Source of the DNA: Myxococcales bacterium
GTDB taxonomy: Bacteria > Myxococcota_A > UBA9042
Direction: 5' to 3'
Assembly: GCA_037441385.1 (NCBI GenBank)
Contig: JBBISH010000164.1
Location: 1 to 11,306, forward strand
Length of the DNA stretch: 11,306 nucleotides
The notes below the pieces were generated by a model. That model ran no database searches and was not told the origin of the DNA. It saw only the letters and a list, made by a program, of their open reading frames with translations. How positions within the stretch are numbered: the first letter of the stretch is position 1; the number at the start of each line of letters is the position of its first letter. Below, piece by piece: positions 2,163 to 11,306 of this stretch. The position numbers and the translations under genes are program-made.

Positions 2163-2301
2163 TATGCACCCGACCTGATTCACGCCTGTACGGCTTCCGT
2201 AACCCGGTTGGCAACTGGCGAGAATCATGCGGGGACCCCGGTTCGGGCCCGCGGAATTTCCAGAGTTTTCGATCCGATTCGAGCGGATTCCGTATAGCCC
2301 G

Positions 2302-3042
2302 CTACAACCCCACCACCGCCTGCGCCTTGGGATCGCTCCGCGCCTCCAGCACCGCGCGCTTCTCGCCCACCTCCAGCCGCTCGTCCACATCGGCCGGAAG
2401 GGCAAAAGTCGCATGGCCTTGCGTGTCCGCCGTGGCCTCCAGCTGGGTGCCATCCGACAGCGTCAGCCGCAGCGCCTCGCCGCCCGTGGGGGTGTGGCCG
2501 CAGTCGCGCTCGCCCACTACCTTCTTCAGCTCGCGCTCGCCCAGGTCCTCGTCGTGCTCGCCGATCTCGCTCTGCTGGTAGACGGCGCCCAGCAAAAACA
2601 CCAAGCCACCAGCCAAGATCCCGCCTGTCAGCAGGTACCGCTGCTGTTGCGCGCCGGGTCCCTCTTCCGGGTCGGGCGTACGGGTCGCCGTCCAAGCCAG
2701 TCCCGCGCCGCCCAGTAAGCTCGCCGCGCCGCCGACGATCCACTCGGCCAGCAGCGACTGCCCGTCGGCGCGCACCGTGGTGTGACGCACTCCGCGGGCC
2801 CGCTGGCGCAGTTCGTCGCCGCAGCGCGCACGCTGGAACACCGACGCAACTACGGTCAAACCCTCGCGTTTGCCGGCCACCCCCAGCAGCGAGGGCAGGG
2901 TGATCGGCTGCTTGCGCGGCGCCTCCAGCGGCACGGCGCTCAGGGTCGACTCGCGGAGCATCCGCGCGCAGTCGCACAGCAACATTGTCAGCAAACAAGT
3001 TGCCAGCAGGTGCAGGGCAAGGGGGGCGGTGCGGCGGGGCAT
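2302..3042 (-). CDS. Hypothetical exported membrane protein / possible lipoprotein, 246 aa
   Basis: AGGAG SD 6 nt before the ATG, 9 nt after the aroC stop. N-terminus is basic then hydrophobic and ends LLCDC. Two Gly-rich hydrophobic segments (LLAEWIVGGAASLLGGAGLAW; YLLTGGILAGGLVFLLGAVY). Host-like codon usage. Confidence 0.75.
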   Translation of the reverse strand: MPRRTAPLALHLLATCLLTMLLCDCARMLRESTLSAVPLEAPRKQPITLPSLLGVAGKREGLTVVASVFQRARCGDELRQRARGVRHTTVRADGQSLLAEWIVGGAASLLGGAGLAWTATRTPDPEEGPGAQQQRYLLTGGILAGGLVFLLGAVYQQSEIGEHDEDLGERELKKVVGERDCGHTPTGGEALRLTLSDGTQLEATADTQGHATFALPADVDERLEVGEKRAVLEARSDPKAQAVVGL

Positions 3043-3051
3043 GGCGTGCTC

Positions 3052-4197
3052 CTACCTTGTTGCCGGCCAGGCATGGCCAGCCAACAGCGCGTCGGCCAAG
3101 ACAAAAGCCACCGCCGCCTCGACGATCGGCACCGCCCGCGTCACCACGCACGGGTCGTGGCGGCCAGTCACCGTGCGCTCGGACGGCTGCCCGGCCCTGG
3201 TACTGCCCTGTTGCGGCTGGGGAATCGTCGCCGCCGGCTTGAACGCGACCTCCAGCACCAGCGGCGCGCCCGAGGAGATCCCACCCAACACGCCGCCGTG
3301 GTGGTTGCTGGCGAACTGAAAACCGTCCAAGAACGGGTCGTTGTGGACCGTGCCGCGCAATTCCGCCGCCGCAAAGCCCGTGCCGAACTGCACGCCGCGC
3401 GCCGCCGGCAGCGAGAGCAGGGCATGACCCAACATCCCGGTCAGCTTGTCAAACACCGGCTCGCCCCAGCCCGCCGGCAGGCCGCGCACCACGCAGCGCA
3501 CGATGCCGCCCAGGCTGTCGCGCTCGCGCTGGGCCTGCTCCAGCAGCGCTTGCATCGCCGCGTGAGCCTGCGGATCGGGGCAGCGCAGCGGACTTTCGTC
3601 GACCTGCGCGCGGGTCAAGGTCAGCGGGTCGATCGCGTAACCGTGGATCTTTCCAGGCAGAATCTGCGCTGGCGCCGGTCCTTGGGCCACTACTCCGCCG
3701 ATCTGCTGCACCCACGCCACGATCTGGATGGGCGGGCACTGGCTGCGGGTCGCCCAGGCCGCCAGCACGGCCTCGGCGATCGCCCCGGCCGCCACCCGCC
3801 CCACCGTCTCGCGCGCCGACGCCCGGCCCCCTCCGCGCGGATCGCGGCGACCAAAGCGCTGGTCCCAGGTAAAATCCGCGTGACCCGGCCGATAGTGCTC
3901 GTCCAGGCCGCTGTAGTCCTTCGATTTGGCGTCGGTATTCTCGACCAGCACCGCGATCGGCGTCCCCAGCGTCTGGCCCTGGTACACCCCCGACAGCAGC
4001 CGCGCGCGATCGCCCTCTTGCCGCTGGGTCTGGTACTTGTTCTGCCCGGGGCGCCGCCGATCCAGTTGGACCTGGATGGACTCGACCGTTAGGTCCACGC
4101 CCGCCGGGCAGCCGTCGACCACACAACCCAGCGCCGCGCCGTGCGATTCGCCAAAGGTGGTCGCCACCAGCGCCTTGCCAAAGCTGTTGCCCGCCAT
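3052..4197 (-). CDS. aroC: Chorismate synthase
   Basis: GNSFG...TTFGESHG, RRRPGQ, RPGHAD, RGGGRASARET, GWGEPVFDKL, SNHHGGVLGGISSG, FKP and GRHDPCV signature motifs. Confidence 0.97.
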   Translation of the reverse strand: MAGNSFGKALVATTFGESHGAALGCVVDGCPAGVDLTVESIQVQLDRRRPGQNKYQTQRQEGDRARLLSGVYQGQTLGTPIAVLVENTDAKSKDYSGLDEHYRPGHADFTWDQRFGRRDPRGGGRASARETVGRVAAGAIAEAVLAAWATRSQCPPIQIVAWVQQIGGVVAQGPAPAQILPGKIHGYAIDPLTLTRAQVDESPLRCPDPQAHAAMQALLEQAQRERDSLGGIVRCVVRGLPAGWGEPVFDKLTGMLGHALLSLPAARGVQFGTGFAAAELRGTVHNDPFLDGFQFASNHHGGVLGGISSGAPLVLEVAFKPAATIPQPQQGSTRAGQPSERTVTGRHDPCVVTRAVPIVEAAVAFVLADALLAGHAWPATR

Positions 4198-4221
4198 CGA
4201 AAAACCCTTTGGTGGCCCAGC

Positions 4222-5019
4222 CTACGCCAGCGGTCGCAGCGCCAGGGGCTGCACCGTGACGGCCTCGGTCGGCCGATCCTGCCAGCTTCCCTGCAACTGC
4301 CCATCGGGCGCCAGCCCGGAAAGGCGGAACAGCCGCACCTGCTGCAGCGGACCCATGTCCAGCTCGACCATCTGCCGCAGATAGGCAAGCCGCCGCTGCA
4401 GACGTTCGTGCGGCAGGACCCCATCAAAGGCCATGACTTCGCTGCGGATCGCCGCCGCCAGCCCAGCCGCTAGCTCGTGGCGCTCTGGCAGGGGTCCGTT
4501 GGCCACTTCTTGCAGCGGGATCCCGATGTCGTGCAGCGCCGCCGGCAACGGCCCGCGCAGGTTCACGCCAATGCCGCACAGCCAGCGCGCGCCACCGCCC
4601 GGCACCTCCACGCGTTCGGCCAGGATCCCGGCGCTCTTGCGCAGCCCGCGCTGGGTGGCCACCATCACGTCGTTCGGCCATTTCAGCTGCAGGCGCGCAC
4701 CCTGCAAACTGGCATGCGCACTCAAGTACTCCACAGCCGCCAGGCCGGCGAGCAGCGAGAGCCGCGGCCACAGCTCCGCCGCCAACGCGACCGGTCCGGC
4801 CAAGGTCATCAACAGGCCCTGGCCAGCGCTGTCCAGCCACTCCGCGCCGCTGCGTCCGCGACCGGCCGTCTGGTGCTCGGCCGTGATCAGCCGCCAATCT
4901 GCGGCGCCGTCCTGCAAAAGCCAAGTGCGCATCGCCGTTTGGGTCGAGTCCAACTCGCCGTAGCTGCGCACCTGCCAGCCGGCGCCCAATTGCTGCTGCA
5001 GTTGTACGGTGTCCAGCAC
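4222..5019 (-). CDS. birA: Biotin-[acetyl-CoA carboxylase] ligase, class I (no N-terminal HTH)
   Basis: LDSTQ, AEHQTAGRGRSG (GRGRxG biotin loop), LKWPNDV, RKSAGIL and GIGVN. GTG start 3 nt after the dacB stop, with a GGAG SD. Confidence 0.93.
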   Translation of the reverse strand: MLDTVQLQQQLGAGWQVRSYGELDSTQTAMRTWLLQDGAADWRLITAEHQTAGRGRSGAEWLDSAGQGLLMTLAGPVALAAELWPRLSLLAGLAAVEYLSAHASLQGARLQLKWPNDVMVATQRGLRKSAGILAERVEVPGGGARWLCGIGVNLRGPLPAALHDIGIPLQEVANGPLPERHELAAGLAAAIRSEVMAFDGVLPHERLQRRLAYLRQMVELDMGPLQQVRLFRLSGLAPDGQLQGSWQDRPTEAVTVQPLALRPLA

Positions 5020-5022
5020 GGC

Positions 5023-6603
5023 TTACTCCGCTAGCAACCGGCGCAACATCCGGTCCTGCACGCCGCGGTAGGGCCCGGCGCCGTTGATGCCGTTGAAGAA
5101 GAACGCAAAGGCATAGATTTTGTCGCCACTTCCAGCGTAGCCGGCCAGGCCCGAGACATCGTCCAACGTGCCTGTCTTGGCAAAGACCTGACCCAAGGTC
5201 ACCTTGCTCTTCAGTCGCCCGCGCAGGGTGCCGTCCACACCGCCCACCGCCAGGGTCGCCTTCCAGTCCTTGCCCTTCTTGTCCTTGGCCATCGCCCGCA
5301 GCAGGTCCACCACCGCCTGGGCGGTGACCGTGTCGGCGTGGTACAGGCCCGAGCCGTTGCCGATCTTGACGCTGTCCCAGCGAATCTCTAGCCCGCTCAG
5401 GGCCTTCTTGACCCCTTCGGCGGCTTTTTCGCCCGTGGACGGCGGGCCGCCTTGCAGCAGCCCCACTTGCTTGAACAGCGTCTCGGCATAGCCGTTGTGC
5501 GACTGTTTATTGGTGACGCTCGCGATGGCGCGCCAGTCGTGGTGCACGTGCTGGGCGACCACCGGCCCGGTCAGGCTCGACTTGCCGAACACGGGCGCAC
5601 CGGCCACCGCCACGCCCTTTTGCTCCAGCAACTGCCGGAACACCCAGCCGGCGTGGTAGGCCGAGTCCGCCACCCGCCGCCGGCCGCTGCCCACTGCTTT
5701 GGCCGTGGCGGGCAACGAACCCGTGATCACGACTTCGGTTTTCTTGCCGCTCGGCCGCGTGCCCACGGTCAAGGTCGACTTGCCCTTGGCCACGGTGCTG
5801 GCCTGGTTGACCACCACCACCGCCTCGCCCGCGTCCGGCATGACCGTTACCAACGGCGGCGCGCCCACTTCGCCAGGCTTGACCACCACTTGCAGGGTGC
5901 TGGCGTCGACGCTCAGGCCACCGACCGGGGCGCGAAAGGCGGCGTCGGTCGCCTTCTCGTCAAAGCCCTTGGGCAGCTTGTCGTCAAAAACCGTAGCGTC
6001 AATCGTCAGTTTCTTGACGCGGGTGATGCCGCTTGCCTTGACCGCGTCGGCCAGCTTGCCCCACTCGGCCGCCGTCATGCTGGGATCGCCCACGCCGACC
6101 ACGGCCAGGTCCACGTCGCCCGACTTGGCCGAGGCGCGCACCTCGGTGACCGGCTTGGCATCCAGGTCAGCGCTGCGCACAAACGCCGCGGTGGTGAACA
6201 GCTTGGCGACCGACGCCGGGTAGACCTGCTTGGTCGGTTGGGCCTCGAACACGGCTTGGCCGCTGGCCATGTCGACGATGAGCCCCACGGCGGTCATCTT
6301 GCCGGGCGCGCTGCGCCAGATAGCCTGCAAGTCCTCGCCGCGGTTGCCGGTGTGGCGGTCGGCCACCTGGGCGCCCGGGGCGGCGTCTTCTTGGGCATTT
6401 TCGTCCGCCGCCGGGCGCACGGCTGCGGGCGCCGCGGCATGGGCCGGTGGTTTGGCGGCGGGTTGCGGCCGCTGGCCCTTGCCCTTGGCCAGTCCAGGCG
6501 CGGCCCACAGGGCCAAACCTAGAATCAAGAACAAGCGCGCAACCGTAGATTGTTTCAGCGTAAAACCAAGAAGGTTGCTGGATGGGTTCGCGCTGCTCGC
6601 CAT
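5023..6603 (-). CDS. dacB: D-alanyl-D-alanine carboxypeptidase/endopeptidase (PBP4, peptidase S13)
   Basis: PASVAKLFT (SxxK), KQSHNGYAE (SxN), AKTGTL (KTG), GVGDPSM, NGSGL and GGVDGTL. Signal peptide (RLFLILGLALWAAPGLA) followed by a Pro/Ala linker. Start placed at ATG 6603 because of the upstream promoter; ATG 6636 is an alternative. Confidence 0.93.
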   Translation of the reverse strand: MASSANPSSNLLGFTLKQSTVARLFLILGLALWAAPGLAKGKGQRPQPAAKPPAHAAAPAAVRPAADENAQEDAAPGAQVADRHTGNRGEDLQAIWRSAPGKMTAVGLIVDMASGQAVFEAQPTKQVYPASVAKLFTTAAFVRSADLDAKPVTEVRASAKSGDVDLAVVGVGDPSMTAAEWGKLADAVKASGITRVKKLTIDATVFDDKLPKGFDEKATDAAFRAPVGGLSVDASTLQVVVKPGEVGAPPLVTVMPDAGEAVVVVNQASTVAKGKSTLTVGTRPSGKKTEVVITGSLPATAKAVGSGRRRVADSAYHAGWVFRQLLEQKGVAVAGAPVFGKSSLTGPVVAQHVHHDWRAIASVTNKQSHNGYAETLFKQVGLLQGGPPSTGEKAAEGVKKALSGLEIRWDSVKIGNGSGLYHADTVTAQAVVDLLRAMAKDKKGKDWKATLAVGGVDGTLRGRLKSKVTLGQVFAKTGTLDDVSGLAGYAGSGDKIYAFAFFFNGINGAGPYRGVQDRMLRRLLAE

Positions 6604-6640
6604 GCCGTCCACTCGGCGCCCCAAACTGAGCGCCATGGGC

Positions 6641-6669
6641 ACGCTACCATGAATGCCTGCGATGGCCAA
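6641..6669 (-). promoter_or_regulatory. Sigma70-type promoter for dacB-birA-aroC operon
   Basis: Minus strand: TTGGCC (6669-6664), 17-nt spacer, TAGCGT (6646-6641), preceded by TGG (extended -10 TGnTAnnnT). Confidence 0.5.
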
Positions 6670-6705
6670 TTCCGCGGAAAGTCGCCCAGGCTGCGCTGGC
6701 TTGGG

Positions 6706-6734
6706 TTGCCGCTCGCCGCAGTTTGCGCTATGCA
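6706..6734 (+). promoter_or_regulatory. Possible sigma70-type promoter for nadC
   Basis: TTGCCG (6706-6711), 17-nt spacer, TATGCA (6729-6734). The -10 lacks the conserved final T. Confidence 0.3.
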
Positions 6735-6780
6735 GCCGCCCGTGCCGCAGTTGCCGCGGCCGCCCCTGCGAGGCCCGTCC

Positions 6781-7635
6781 ATGTGGTTCGACCATCCGCT
6801 TGTGCGCCAACTGGTCGAGCTGGCCTTGGCCGAGGACGTGGGCAACGGCGACCACGCCACTCAGGCCTGCCTCGATCCGCAGCAGCAGGGGACGGCCCAT
6901 GTGCGCGCCAAATCGCCGCTGGTCGTGTGCGGCGGTCCGCTGTTTGCCCGGGTGATGCAGCGCGTCGAGCCCAGCCTGCGCGTCGAATTGCACCTGCAAG
7001 ACGGCGATTCTGCGGCGGCTGGGCAGACTGTGTTGAGCGTGCACGGCTCGCTGGCGGCGATCCTGACCGCCGAGCGGACGGCTTTGAATTTCATGCAGCG
7101 CTTGAGCGGCATCGCGACCACCACTGCCGCCTATGTCGCCGCCGTCCACGGCACCAAGGCGCAAATTGCCGACACTCGCAAGACCCTGCCGGGCTTCCGC
7201 AGCCTAGACAAGTACGCCGTGCGCTGCGGCGGCGGGCGCAATCACCGCACCGCCTTGGATGCCGGGATTCTCATCAAGGAAAATCACACGCATGCGGCGG
7301 GATCGATCGCCCAGGCGGTGGCGTCGGCACGCCAGGTCGGCTCGCACCTGCTCAAGGTCGAGGTCGAGGTCGAGACCCTGGCCGACCTGGACGCGGCGCT
7401 GCAGGCGGGCGCCGACGTCGTGCTGCTCGACAACATGGATCTGGCTCAGCTGCGCGAGGCTGTCCGGCGCACTGCCGGGCGGGCGCTGCTGGAAGCCAGC
7501 GGCAACATGAGCCTAGAGCGGGTGCGGCAAGTGGCCGAGACCGGCGTTGACCTCATCTCGGTGGGCGCGCTGACGCACTCGGTGGTGGCGGCGGATCTGT
7601 CCCTGCGGATTCAGGGCGCGGAATCACCTGGATAG
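6781..7635 (+). CDS. nadC: Nicotinate-nucleotide pyrophosphorylase (quinolinate phosphoribosyltransferase), 284 aa
   Basis: ALAED, AERTALNFMQRLSGIAT, DTRKTLPG, GGGRNHR, LIKENH, EVEVET, LLDNM, EASGN and ISVGALTHS. ATG 6781 has GAGG upstream. Confidence 0.97.
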   Translation: MWFDHPLVRQLVELALAEDVGNGDHATQACLDPQQQGTAHVRAKSPLVVCGGPLFARVMQRVEPSLRVELHLQDGDSAAAGQTVLSVHGSLAAILTAERTALNFMQRLSGIATTTAAYVAAVHGTKAQIADTRKTLPGFRSLDKYAVRCGGGRNHRTALDAGILIKENHTHAAGSIAQAVASARQVGSHLLKVEVEVETLADLDAALQAGADVVLLDNMDLAQLREAVRRTAGRALLEASGNMSLERVRQVAETGVDLISVGALTHSVVAADLSLRIQGAESPG

Positions 7636-10600
7636 CCCAGGCTTCTTGTCCGATTGCGCGTCCATGCGCGGCGGCCCGCCGTAGCGGACCGAGACGAACG
7701 GGCGCAGCGCCGGCACGCCCCAGCCGGGCCACAGGCCCACGTTCGAGCCAATGGTGGCGTACAAGTCCTCGCCCATCACCCAGTTCAGCGCCAGCCCGGC
7801 CTCCATGCGCTCGTCGCGGCTGTTGCTAAAGGGCGCGGTCAGCGGGGTCTCGTGGCTCAGCGAGGCGTCGATCCAAAACACGTCGGGATTCCAAGGCTTG
7901 TCCCAGCCCTTGCGCGCCACCAGCGGGTTCAGGCTGCCGGCGACGCTCACCCGCACCACCGAGCCGTCGTGCACGCTGAACAGCTGGCTCTGGCTCTGCA
8001 GGCGCAGCCCCAACGACATCGCCACGCGCCATGGGCCAAAACTGCCCGACGCCAGGGCTGTTGGCGCGACGGTCGGTCCGGGGCGTCCCAAATAGGCCGC
8101 GGGATCGCCGGTCGGCAGGCTGACCCGCAGTAGCGCCGCCGCGCCCCACGTTCCCAGTTTGTCGGGCACGAACACGTACTTGGCCGCCAAGTGCAGGTCG
8201 CCCACCCCCATGTCGTTGGCCAGCGTGCCGCTGTTGGGGCCATAGAGCGACGGCAACGTCCCGGTTTGGTAAACGCTCAGCGGCAAGCCCAGACCCAGCG
8301 TCAGGTGGTCAAACACGCGCATGGCGGCGCCGACGTCCACTTGCGTGCGACCGTCGACCAGCGGCCGGACCACCGTGGCCTCGTCGCCCACCACCAGCGG
8401 CCGCCAGGCATACTGCAGCTGCATCGTCCCGGCCAGTCCGTACAGCGGCAATTCGCGGGCCGATTCCTCGTTCAAGATGCCCGTGCCGTCCAACCCCGGC
8501 CGCCCGCCGGTCACGTCGGGGGGCGCCAGCGCCAGCGCCGGCAGCGGCACCAGCAGCAGGGCCAGCACCAGGGCCAGCACCAGCGCGTGCCATTTCTGCT
8601 TGCGCCGGACCGCCAACGCCGCCAGCGCCAGCCCCAAAATCGCCAGCACCGCTGCGGGCTTCACGGGCGTCGGCCCAGCGCTGCACGCCGACAGGGGCGA
8701 GGTCCCGCGCACTTCCAATCCCGCTTCCAGCACGTCGCGATCGTCGCCGGCATCCAGGGGATTGGTATGTGTCTCAAGCACTTCTGTGGCATCGTCCAGG
8801 CCGCCGCCGTCGGTGTCGGGGTCGCGCTGGTTGGTGTGAAAGACCAGGACTTCGTCGCCGTCCAGCAACCGGTCGCCGTCGCTGTCCAAGTCGCGGAAAT
8901 CGGGGCGCCCATCGCCGTCGCTATCCAGCGGGCTTTGCGCCAGACCCGGTTCCACGCCGCCTTCGTACGAATCGGGCAAGTTATCGCCGTCCGAGTCCGC
9001 GTCCAGTGCATCGATGACCTTGTCGCCGTCCGTGTCGGCCGGGTGCAGCGGATCGCCAACTTCGGTGGCATCCCACAGGCCATCTTTGTCGCTGTCGGCG
9101 AGCAACGGGTTCGTACCGATCTGCACTTCCACCGTGTTGGGCAGCGAGTCGCCGTCGTTGTCGCCGTCGTTGGCCACGTCGTCGCTGGCCAGGCCTGGAT
9201 CGGTCTCGCCCAGGTCCACCTGGCCGTCGTGGCTGAAGTCTTCGAAGCCATCTGCCAGTCCGCCGCGATCGCTGTCCGGCACGCGCGTCAGGGTGCGCGT
9301 CAACGGGTCCTTGTCGGCGACGAACGTCGACGAGCTCAGCGCCGTCGCCTTGGGAAAGGCCAACGTCTCCAAGGTCAGGCCCATTTCGGTGCCGTCGAAC
9401 AGCCCGTCGTTGTCGCTATCCTCGTCCAGGGCGTCGATCGGGCCGTCGCCGTCGCTGTCGACCGACCAGTTGGCCTCGCGACCGTCTGGCACGCCGTCGT
9501 CGTCGCTGTCCGCATCGTCGGGGCGCGTGCCAAAGTGGTTTTCCTCGGCATCGCACAGGCCATCGCCGTCGCTGTCGGGTTGTGGCGACACGGATTCGGC
9601 GTCGTTGGCGTCGCTCTCTAGCGCGTCGACTTGGCCATTGTGGTTGGCATCTTCGTAGCCGTCGGCCTGGCCATCGCCGTCGCTGTCGCGGGCGAGCGGC
9701 AGGGTCTTGGACAGGGGCTGGGCATCGGCGATGAACCGACCGGCGGCGACCTTGGTGCCCCCCACCGGCCCGATGGCCTCGATCGCGTTGACGACGCCCA
9801 GTTCGGTGCCATCGCCCACGCCGTCGTTGTCGCTGTCGGGGTCCAGCGCGCCGGGCAGGCCGTCGCCGTCGCCATCAAACAGCGGGTCCGGCTCTGCGCC
9901 ATCGGCGACGCCGTCGTCGTCACTGTCCATGTCTTGCGACGAAGTGCCCGCGCGCAGTTCCTCGTGATCCGCCAGGCCGTCTTTGTCCGCGTCGGCCACT
10001 TTCAAGGTCACGCTGGTCGGCGAGTTCGGATCGCCTTCGCCCTCGTCGACTTGGCCGTTGCCGTTGACGTCTTCCAAGCCATCGCGCTGGCCGTCGCGGT
10101 CGCTGTCGGCGCGCAGCGGCGAGGTGCGGGTCAGTGGGTCCAGATCGGGGCTGAAATTGTGGCGCAATTGCCAGGTAGCGCTGGCCGCCGCGGCGATGCC
10201 TCGTTCCAGTCCGTCGGGCAGGCCGTCGCCGTCGCTGTCGGGGTCGTTCACGTCGGGGGCGCCGTCGTGATCGCCGTCCAGGCTAAAGTTCCACTCGGCG
10301 CCGTCGTACCAGCCGTCGTCATCGCTGTCGGCGTCGTGGGGATCGCTGCCCAGGGCCAGTTCTTCGGGATCGCGCAACCCGTCGCCGTCGCTGTCGGGGC
10401 TCGTCGGCTCGGCGGTGGCTTGGTTGGGATCACTTTCGCCGGTCTGGACCTGGCCATCGTGGTTGCTGTCCTCGGCGCCGTCGCGCTGGCCGTCGCCGTC
10501 GCTGTCCACGCCGTCGGGGTTGGTGGTGGTGCTGGGATCGGCGTCGGCGCGGAAGGCGCGCGCAGCCAAGTCGGTGTCGGGTCCGACTTGCACCAGCAGG

Positions 10601-11306
10601 CGTCCCACCTCCACCGAGTCCCAGATGCCGTCGTTGTCGCGGTCGGCGTCCAGCGGCCCGATGAGCCCGTCGCCATCGCCATCCACGGGCGGCTCTTCGC
10701 CGTCTTCCAGCCCGTCGTCATCGCTGTCGCGGTCCTTGGGCGCGGTGCCTAGCTTGACCTCGGACCCGTCGTTCAGGCCGTCGCCATCGGTGTCCGGCAC
10801 CGTACGCAATGTCCCGTATTGCTTCTCTAAACTATCGTTCAGCCCGTCACTGTCCGAGTCGTTGGATCGGAAATCCGCCAGCCCATCGCCGTCGCTGTCC
10901 ACAGGTGGAGTTTGCCAGTTGGCGTCGCCAGCCTCGTCGGCGTCGGACCAATCGTCGTTGTCGCTGTCGGGATCCAGCACATCGGGGGTGCCATCGCCGT
11001 CGCTGTCGACCAGCTTGCCGGCCGGCGCCTCGTGGCCATCCGAGATGGTGTCGCCGTCGCTATCGGGCTTCTTGGGATCCGTCCCGATCTGAATTTCCAA
11101 CGAGTTCTTGAGGCCATCGCCATCCAGATCGCCGCCGCTATCGTCGCTCGGGTCCAGCGGGTTGGTGCCTTCGCTGATCTCTTGCCCATCTGGCGTGCCA
11201 CCTTGGTCGCTGTCCTTCTTGTTTGGGTCGGTCTCGCCGCTGTCGACCTTGCCGTTCTTGTTCTTGTCTTCGCCGGCATCAAACAACCCATCGCCGTCGC
11301 TGTCCT
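7624..11306 (-). CDS. Giant cell-surface protein (5'-truncated, >1226 aa): DxDxDG Ca2+-binding (bacterial TSP3-like) repeats, internal MYXO-CTERM-like signal, second signal peptide, C-terminal outer-membrane beta-barrel
   Basis: The frame stays open to the window edge (DSDGDGL before the track's TTG). Dozens of DxDxDGxxDxxE and GTxP motifs, then RGTSPLSACSAG...AVLAILGLALAALAVRRK, then WHALVLALVLALLLVPLPALA. The last ~300 aa have alternating hydrophobic strands and end PALRPFVSVRY. Confidence 0.88.
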   Translation of the reverse strand, partial: DSDGDGLFDAGEDKNKNGKVDSGETDPNKKDSDQGGTPDGQEISEGTNPLDPSDDSGGDLDGDGLKNSLEIQIGTDPKKPDSDGDTISDGHEAPAGKLVDSDGDGTPDVLDPDSDNDDWSDADEAGDANWQTPPVDSDGDGLADFRSNDSDSDGLNDSLEKQYGTLRTVPDTDGDGLNDGSEVKLGTAPKDRDSDDDGLEDGEEPPVDGDGDGLIGPLDADRDNDGIWDSVEVGRLLVQVGPDTDLAARAFRADADPSTTTNPDGVDSDGDGQRDGAEDSNHDGQVQTGESDPNQATAEPTSPDSDGDGLRDPEELALGSDPHDADSDDDGWYDGAEWNFSLDGDHDGAPDVNDPDSDGDGLPDGLERGIAAAASATWQLRHNFSPDLDPLTRTSPLRADSDRDGQRDGLEDVNGNGQVDEGEGDPNSPTSVTLKVADADKDGLADHEELRAGTSSQDMDSDDDGVADGAEPDPLFDGDGDGLPGALDPDSDNDGVGDGTELGVVNAIEAIGPVGGTKVAAGRFIADAQPLSKTLPLARDSDGDGQADGYEDANHNGQVDALESDANDAESVSPQPDSDGDGLCDAEENHFGTRPDDADSDDDGVPDGREANWSVDSDGDGPIDALDEDSDNDGLFDGTEMGLTLETLAFPKATALSSSTFVADKDPLTRTLTRVPDSDRGGLADGFEDFSHDGQVDLGETDPGLASDDVANDGDNDGDSLPNTVEVQIGTNPLLADSDKDGLWDATEVGDPLHPADTDGDKVIDALDADSDGDNLPDSYEGGVEPGLAQSPLDSDGDGRPDFRDLDSDGDRLLDGDEVLVFHTNQRDPDTDGGGLDDATEVLETHTNPLDAGDDRDVLEAGLEVRGTSPLSACSAGPTPVKPAAVLAILGLALAALAVRRKQKWHALVLALVLALLLVPLPALALAPPDVTGGRPGLDGTGILNEESARELPLYGLAGTMQLQYAWRPLVVGDEATVVRPLVDGRTQVDVGAAMRVFDHLTLGLGLPLSVYQTGTLPSLYGPNSGTLANDMGVGDLHLAAKYVFVPDKLGTWGAAALLRVSLPTGDPAAYLGRPGPTVAPTALASGSFGPWRVAMSLGLRLQSQSQLFSVHDGSVVRVSVAGSLNPLVARKGWDKPWNPDVFWIDASLSHETPLTAPFSNSRDERMEAGLALNWVMGEDLYATIGSNVGLWPGWGVPALRPFVSVRYGGPPRMDAQSDKKPGLSR
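8851..11130 (-). repeat. Higher-order protein repeats B-A-A-A-A-B within the Asp-rich region
   Basis: Type A modules at 10794-10423, 10395-10024, 9993-9604 and 9576-9193 (start-to-start periods 133, 134 and 139 aa). Type B modules at 11130-10825 and 9162-8851. Confidence 0.8.

Follow-up and report, generated by a model that had tools for sequence, protein, structure and literature searches.

The stretch of DNA analysed here (the window) comprises positions 1 to 11,306 of contig JBBISH010000164.1 from a Myxococcales bacterium (NCBI GenBank assembly GCA_037441385.1), and its minus strand carries the end of a large gene in which a calcium-binding passenger, a MYXO-CTERM sorting tag, a second hydrophobic segment and a predicted outer-membrane beta-barrel follow one another in a single open reading frame (ORF). 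An earlier note, made from the letters of this DNA, had read the frame as a candidate polyprotein for a surface adhesin and its own outer-membrane partner. The elements on which it relied (the Cys, the helix, the RRK cluster, the second segment and a TTG at 8616) were all recovered on the minus strand, at the positions collected in Table 1. Its anatomy of the ORF proved correct in every detail, except that the gene is open at its 5' side and only its end lies in the window, the 1226 codons present being the last of a larger gene whose relatives have open frames of 2020 to 2119 codons.

Table 1. Features of the precursor gene, in the order of translation
Feature	Position	Strand	Remarks
Precursor ORF	7624..11304	-	1226 codons plus stop; 5'-open at the window edge
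Passenger, acidic Ca-binding thrombospondin type-3 (TSP3) repeats	8686..11304	-	Pfam TSP3_bac and NCBIfam CglD scores
Tag signature RGTSPLSAC	8683..8709	-	Cys at 8685-8683; proposed site of lipidation and myxosortase cleavage
SAGPTPVKP	between tag Cys and TM1	-	ORF translation
First transmembrane segment (TM1), the MYXO-CTERM helix AAVLAILGLALAALAV	8608..8655	-	read as stop-transfer anchor; helix 18-35 of the model
In-frame TTG, candidate internal start (MAVRRKQK...)	8614..8616	-	duplex -5.2 kcal/mol
Basic cluster RRKQK	8593..8607	-	RRK itself 8607-8599; then WH
Putative internal signal peptide ALVLALVLALLLV-PLPALA	8530..8586	-	h-region ALVLALVLALLLV 8586-8548; c-region PLPALA 8547-8530
Predicted signal peptidase I cut between A and L	between 8530 and 8529	-	small-x-small pattern, conserved columns
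Conserved N-terminal stretch of the barrel protein (predicted mature form), LAPPDVTGGRPGLDGTGIL...	8437..8529	-	begins LAPPDVTGG; low-confidence model
TraB-like 12-stranded outer-membrane beta-barrel (predicted)	7681..8436	-	AlphaFold2, Foldseek, TraB model, PF13557
C-terminal tail, 18 residues	7627..7680	-	end of the protein is the end of the profile

The passenger matched the Pfam model TSP3_bac in six stretches (56.1 bits), and the window ORF scored 257 bits with the NCBIfam model CglD, for which the cutoff is 400; the passenger is like CglD and MtsD, yet it stays under the cutoffs of both models. The part from the tag to the stop makes up the last 361 residues of the ORF, and the frame is without a stop throughout. 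The second hydrophobic segment begins at residue 907 of the window ORF, that is, not at an N-terminus, and its end in PLPALA is followed by 301 residues up to the stop at 7626-7624, in agreement with the earlier note, which had the frame run through RRK into the second segment and about 300 further residues.

Conservation of the junction among relatives

A word-indexed protein search, limited to proteins of similar length, returned ten long homologs (1062-2032 aa), all of them fused, which matched residues 860 to 1226 with 45-54% identity and 77-97% coverage. A genome scan with one genome per species, using a profile from a four-sequence alignment, gave seven related loci (L001 to L007), all in metagenome-assembled genomes (MAGs); the records label six of them Myxococcota, Myxococcales or Deltaproteobacteria, and L004 Proteobacteria. 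In all seven the frame is uninterrupted across the junction, five frames being bounded (with the codon numbers given above) and two ended by a contig edge. Among proteins of relatives, seven full-length ones were examined, and each has an N-terminal signal peptide. Together with the window, eight DNA-level sequences of 52-87% identity show, in the same order, the Cys, the transmembrane (TM) helix, the basic loop, the second segment and a small-x-small pattern, a degree of conservation that, on the sequence comparison, is far more than chance would be expected to produce.

The earlier note had allowed for an assembly fusion, in which two genes would have been merged by a stop or frameshift lost in assembly or sequencing. 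The observation that could be cited for it is a single standalone match (P0002, 300 aa, 80% identity). We rejected P0002 as a split gene and take it for an in-frame sub-call, because 299 of its 300 positions are identical to the L002 frame past a GTG located in the second segment, where L002 has no stop. With the fusion kept in independent assemblies (7/7 MAG loci, besides the 10/10 long homologs), the same junction in 77 of the 150 distant representatives listed below, and neither stop nor frameshift after RRK in any of the eight DNA sequences, an artefact is so improbable that we consider it ruled out by the comparative data.

The curated cutoff of the MYXO-CTERM model TIGR03901 is 20 bits. 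When isolated as pieces of 54 and 64 aa, the junction scored 24.7 and 25.3 bits, and the isolated tag attained the cutoff in seven of the eight clade sequences, L003 giving 19.8 bits. The Cys, whose conservation the earlier note had made a touchstone of its reading, is invariant in 8/8 sequences, as are the R, G, T, P, L and S of RGTSPLSAC. The clade signature RGT[ST]P[LF][ST]xC is strictly conserved; distant fusions mostly have the canonical GGGC[SA]. The tag piece of L004 was also at the cutoff of the JDVT-CTERM model (27.4 versus 27 bits). The window protein thus has the Cys, the TM helix and the Arg/Lys cluster in the order known from MYXO-CTERM tags, but not at the extreme C-terminus, as 322 residues follow RRKQK (324 when counted from RRK). 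A tripartite tag with polypeptide after it is reportedly still processed in the case of LPXTG and of the Haloferax ArtA substrate, both cited in PMC11980579, although these cases involve other enzymes and organisms than MYXO-CTERM.

Judged by the rule for signal peptides, the second segment has a basic n-region (RRKQK), a hydrophobic h-region of 13 aa (range 7-15) and A-L-A before the predicted cut, with L and not Pro at +1. In the eight-sequence alignment the cleavage columns read P(-4), A/S/V(-3), x, A(-1) before the cut and L(+1), x, P(+3), x, D, V/I, T after it, with P(-4), A(-1), L(+1) and P(+3) invariant in 8/8 sequences. The 13-residue h-region and the Pro-containing c-region are, by their composition, signal-peptide-like rather than anchor-like. 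At L002, around 10100-10190 of the plus strand (alignment columns 215-230), the second segment contains a tandem LLLAGE repeat, GLLLAGELLLAGELLLAGVLLLVALPSWA, which puts Glu residues into the expected h-region while the last 16 residues are still hydrophobic; the GTG at which P0002 begins lies directly past this repeat.

Run against 1.84 billion representatives, a profile that covered the junction and the barrel matched 3162 proteins at E<=1e-3, of which 996 reached E<=1e-10 and 10 reached E<=1e-30. The segment counts rest on the 150 listed matches of this search, scored by hydrophobicity. Among these 150, (i) at least 100 residues precede the profile start in 69, the profile starts within the first 60 residues in 78, and 3 are intermediate, (ii) the 95 residues before the barrel contain two or three hydrophobic segments in 77 representatives, one in 57 and none in 16, these last being fragments, (iii) in 76 of the 77 two-segment representatives the first of the two barrel-nearest segments is preceded by a Cys at a distance of no more than 22 residues, in 76/77 the loop contains 3 or more basic residues, and in 76/77 the last segment ends in small-x-small, all strict criteria being combined in 68/77 and the misses being mostly due to a single acidic residue within an extended basic loop, (iv) the single segment lies within the first 40 residues in 54 of the 57 and is an ordinary N-terminal signal peptide. 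Because the standalone relatives carry their N-terminal signal peptide there, the second segment of the fused forms is its positional equivalent, and the internal Sec signal that the earlier note had placed after RRK finds support both in this position and in the n/h/c pattern.

With a basic loop between two neighbouring hydrophobic helices, the region also looks like a TM1-TM2 hairpin, and, the cleavage itself being predicted, the chain might stay uncut at the second segment, with both domains tethered in the periplasm from the inner membrane. We hold this to be very improbable, since the small-x-small pattern with Pro at -4 is invariant in the eight sequences and recurs, as small-x-small, among the listed two-segment representatives, since the standalone relatives use the same segment as their signal peptide, and since the roughly 30 residues that lead to the first strand would seem too short to tether an outer-membrane barrel to the inner membrane.

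The barrel domain and its family

AlphaFold2, run on a nine-row alignment, returned a model with a mean pLDDT of 71.7 and a pTM of 0.70, in which two helices (residues 18-35 and 39-52) precede 12 long strands that fall within residues 92-343; the pLDDT of most strand blocks is 80-89. In a Foldseek comparison with the PDB this model matched FapF best (5o68_F; E 6.8e-10, TMt 0.69, probability 1.0) and next a COG4313 channel (4rl8_C; E 2.1e-9, TMt 0.66, probability 1.0), at a sequence identity of 11-15%; autotransporter barrels and FadL ranked lower, EstA, NalP and Hbp being at TMt 0.27-0.49. Both best structural matches, FapF and COG4313 (PF13557), are 12-stranded channels, though, unlike the window protein, they stand alone, without adhesin or sorting tag. 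PF13557 itself matched the domain at 22.1 bits, the cutoff being 22. The predicted fold of the last 300 or so residues is hence the outer-membrane barrel that the earlier note had anticipated.

The TraB model NF033763 aligned with the domain over profile positions 33-292 of 522 (40.7 bits; cutoff 700; E 7.2e-11), so that the TraA/TraB parallel, which the earlier note had drawn as an analogy, corresponds to true homology on the barrel side. OmpA (PF00691) gave no match in the window protein at E<=0.1, and 18 residues remain past the barrel; going by these profile comparisons, the C-terminal domain is a remote homolog of TraB that lacks OmpA. The same TraB model matched 19 of 20 sampled fusions with 58.7-291.6 bits, all below the cutoff of 700, and in 7 of these 19 the best stretch opens at profile positions 2-13, directly after the basic cluster. 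Among the listed representatives, 55/69 fusions and 60/78 standalone forms have a C-terminal extension no shorter than 150 aa, which is OmpA in 11 of 18 sampled. In the ESM Atlas, the Myxococcota clusters nearest to the barrel are automatically named OmpA or MotB family (scores 0.96-0.97).

The first 30 or so residues of the predicted mature barrel protein (8437-8529) are among the most conserved of the family, yet they are modelled at a pLDDT of 38-56. D65, V66, T67, R70, D74, G77, I78 and A84 are invariant in this segment, and the matching motif of distant relatives reads ..ERFR.a.D..G(I/L).dVE. FapF has an N-terminal plug, and by analogy the conserved segment may serve as a plug or in docking.

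Since the best fold match, FapF, is a polypeptide transporter, since the 12-stranded EstA, NalP and Hbp match as well, and since the passenger comes first and the barrel last, the barrel might be the passenger's own exporter, so that the adhesin would be threaded or released through the outer membrane in the manner of an autotransporter or of FapF. We find this improbable: the COG4313 channel and FapF fit about equally well, the published MYXO-CTERM proteins depend on type II secretion (by the T2SS; PMC11980579), and, unlike in type V systems, a TM helix plus Arg cluster would arrest the chain in the inner membrane. A type Va autotransporter in particular was rejected, given that no autotransporter Pfam family matched and that a TM helix and RRK lie between passenger and barrel.

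A FastTree phylogeny of the barrel columns was built from 129 rows (85 fused, 44 standalone), rows with fewer than 220 matched profile positions, rows without a hydrophobic segment, and P0002 being omitted; the numbers that follow are limited by the FastTree support values and by errors in gene calls. The fused or standalone state changes 27 times on this tree, compared with a mean of 36.8 after shuffling, a number this small being reached in none of 500 shuffles; the well-supported branches force at least 8 changes. The clade that includes the window gene comprises 15 rows (support 99), 13 of them fusions and 2 standalone. One standalone protein, P0014 (608 aa, with OmpA and its own signal peptide), is sister to P0010, an OmpA-less fusion of 2032 aa (support 100; branch lengths 0.15 and 0.19 in the first tree), which suggests a recent fusion or fission along with a gain or loss of OmpA.

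Proposed processing of the precursor

We consider it probable that the gene encodes one chain that is cut into a Cys-anchored adhesin and a TraB-like barrel in a 1:1 ratio, and this is the best reading of the data because, among the 150 listed representatives, 77 carry Cys, TM helix, basic loop and second segment before the barrel, while 54 have an N-terminal signal peptide in that place. Export of the passenger, a TSP3 region of about 1600 aa, would be started by the N-terminal Sec signal, which in the case of the window gene lies beyond the window. TM1 of the tag would then halt the transfer and RRKQK would remain in the cytoplasm, a topology in which this loop may be read as the tail of the tag and the n-region of the second signal at once. 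The second segment would re-enter the translocon as an internal signal peptide and export the C-terminal domain, and signal peptidase I would cut after PLPALA, giving a free barrel to be inserted into the outer membrane.

In the published pathway, a MYXO-CTERM protein is lipidated at its Cys, cleaved by the myxosortase MrtX and delivered to the surface by the T2SS (PMC11980579). The passenger would likewise be lipidated at the Cys, cut by a myxosortase and displayed on the surface, as are proteins with a C-terminal MYXO-CTERM, and might there act in adhesion or cohesion. Adhesin and barrel would then pair 1:1 in the way of TraA and TraB. These two, according to PMC12045341, form 1:1 complexes, and AlphaFold puts TraA with its membrane-proximal head on the barrel of TraB; the published complexes therefore offer a rationale for a stoichiometry hard-wired by fusion.

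A number of points weigh against this interpretation. TIGR03901, the model whose use the earlier note had foreseen, accepts the isolated tag, but it gives the whole ORF only 18.2 bits, under the cutoff. The signature is RGTSPLSAC and not the usual GGGC[SA], and neither a myxosortase (CPBP protease) nor a T2SS gene was found in the window or in the flanks examined. The signal peptide was judged by rule and not by a predictor; the cleavage products of the window protein, as of any other fused member, are predicted from sequence, and the association of passenger and barrel is proposed by analogy with TraA and TraB. Lastly, in six of the seven loci counted, the basic cluster has in-frame start-type codons just upstream, with Shine-Dalgarno-like pairing of -2 to -6 kcal/mol (L006 was left out of this duplex test, whose energies do not discriminate).

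These codons bear on another explanation, in which the barrel half is initiated internally, at the TTG of the window or at a Val, Leu or Met codon in the relatives, to give MAVRRKQK...-barrel, and the fused product is incidental or minor. In six of seven parsed loci such a codon stands no more than four codons upstream of the basic cluster, and L001 has an ATG at the position of the window's TTG. While the earlier note, which had offered the in-frame TTG (8616-8614) as its alternative, saw no Shine-Dalgarno sequence, there is a weak Shine-Dalgarno-like pairing at this codon, and the energies at the junction overlap those at real starts (-2 to -6 kcal/mol, one -10.8), for which reason a separately translated barrel is possible. 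Translational coupling has a precedent in traA and traB, described in PMC3325183 as two ORFs with a 4-base overlap. On the other hand, the codons in question are ordinary Val, Leu and Met codons of the TM helix, and their position is not conserved, L003 having none between -13 and +5. Moreover, ribosomes that translate the passenger must continue into the barrel in all eight DNA sequences, and since there is no stop at the junction the fused chain would be made anyway and need a polyprotein route. We therefore think internal initiation unlikely as the main source of the barrel, and as far as computation goes the polyprotein interpretation is supported.

Genomic setting, known counterparts and meaning for the family

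Downstream of the precursor, the window carries a PBP4-BirA-AroC run (3052-7164, minus strand) that is common only to the closest relative, L001 (12092-15661, plus strand). L003 and L005 have a 1226-aa ORF downstream, with MetH in L003, and the neighbours at L006 and L007 are Dtd, a hydrolase and enolase; no fts genes were found in the flanks of L001, L003, L006 or L007. Because the neighbours within the clade are unrelated housekeeping genes, the gene seems to be on its own and not part of a conserved operon. The ORF for PBP4, an S13 DD-carboxypeptidase, (5023-7164, minus strand) has 713 aa but matches its family only from about residue 291-302, and its ortholog in L001 (532 aa) from residue 110; the true PBP4 start is probably well downstream of 7164, and at least 459 nt, possibly more than 1 kb, would therefore be left unassigned after the stop of the large gene. 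Downstream of that stop codon we found no convincing terminator or promoter, and an Rfam scan of the window gave 0 matches. Two further minus-strand ORFs, 564-2453 and 2225-3151 (629 and 308 aa), overlap by 229 nt and had no Pfam or NCBIfam match at E<=0.1.

Whether the architecture had been described before was left undecided in the earlier note; it had, for MXAN_5598 of Myxococcus xanthus, which according to the passages of PMC11980579 (mBio 2025) consulted has an extensive adhesin part ahead of an internal MYXO-CTERM, with an outer-membrane beta-barrel and OmpA after it. The authors see a parallel to TraA and TraB, whose ORFs overlap, propose that its N-terminal part is processed and surface-anchored, place the gene next to ftsA/ftsZ, and call internal MYXO-CTERM motifs rare; in the same passages, neither a second signal peptide nor an export route for the barrel half is mentioned for MXAN_5598. 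The protein has been detected in outer-membrane vesicles, in whose proteome table it is listed as "OmpA domain protein" (PMC4158809). Compared by description, MXAN_5598 and the window protein are alike in having an adhesin-like N-terminal region, an internal tag and a barrel in one ORF; they differ in that the former has OmpA and lies by ftsA/ftsZ, whereas the latter is OmpA-less and encoded upstream of PBP4-BirA-AroC. The words internal, fusion, fused and TraB occur 0 times in the Haft preprint, and a literature search for bacterial internal signal peptides or polyproteins returned nothing relevant. In full-text searches MXAN_5598 came up in just 2 papers, and internal MYXO-CTERM tags in none beyond this same group of papers.

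TraA and TraB resemble the window precursor in that a signal peptide and a barrel come after a MYXO-CTERM surface protein, the window barrel being homologous to TraB's N-terminal region. In contrast to the window gene, they are encoded in two ORFs, TraB has TSP3 repeats and an OmpA domain after its signal peptide and barrel (PMC12045341), and TraA has PA14 and Cys-rich repeats where the window passenger has TSP3. Set against the definition of TraB, the window protein possesses the barrel and a signal peptide, here an internal and putative one, but stays under the 700 bits and has no OmpA.

The architecture itself is accordingly not new. What is added here is (i) an explicit, predicted internal signal peptide with a conserved cleavage site, (ii) how common the fusion is among TraB-like barrels, and (iii) an OmpA-less clade with TSP3 passengers that includes the window gene. 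The rarity ascribed to internal MYXO-CTERM motifs in PMC11980579 does not hold inside this barrel family, because 77 of the 150 listed representatives carry one. We further envisage, with the arguments for and against in even balance, a large class of bacterial envelope polyproteins that experiments have so far overlooked and of which the window gene would be one case; in this class, about half of the Myxococcota TraB-like barrels would be the tail of a MYXO-CTERM precursor, an internal signal peptide would restart Sec, fusion and fission would have occurred repeatedly, and each adhesin would dock on its cognate barrel, at a 1:1 ratio set by the fusion.

If both cuts occur, the precursor would be a natural bacterial polyprotein in which one helix-loop-helix ends a sorting tag and opens a Sec signal, a double use that is seldom considered in bacterial annotation. 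The fusion also lends independent, "Rosetta-stone" support to the model of a TraA-TraB partnership and widens it to many other passengers, with TSP3, DUF4215 Cys-rich repeats, DUF11 or tandem-95 repeats. Exact cleavage sites are supplied that can be tested, and there is reason to re-examine the giant Myxococcota proteins of this family whose barrel half lacks annotation.

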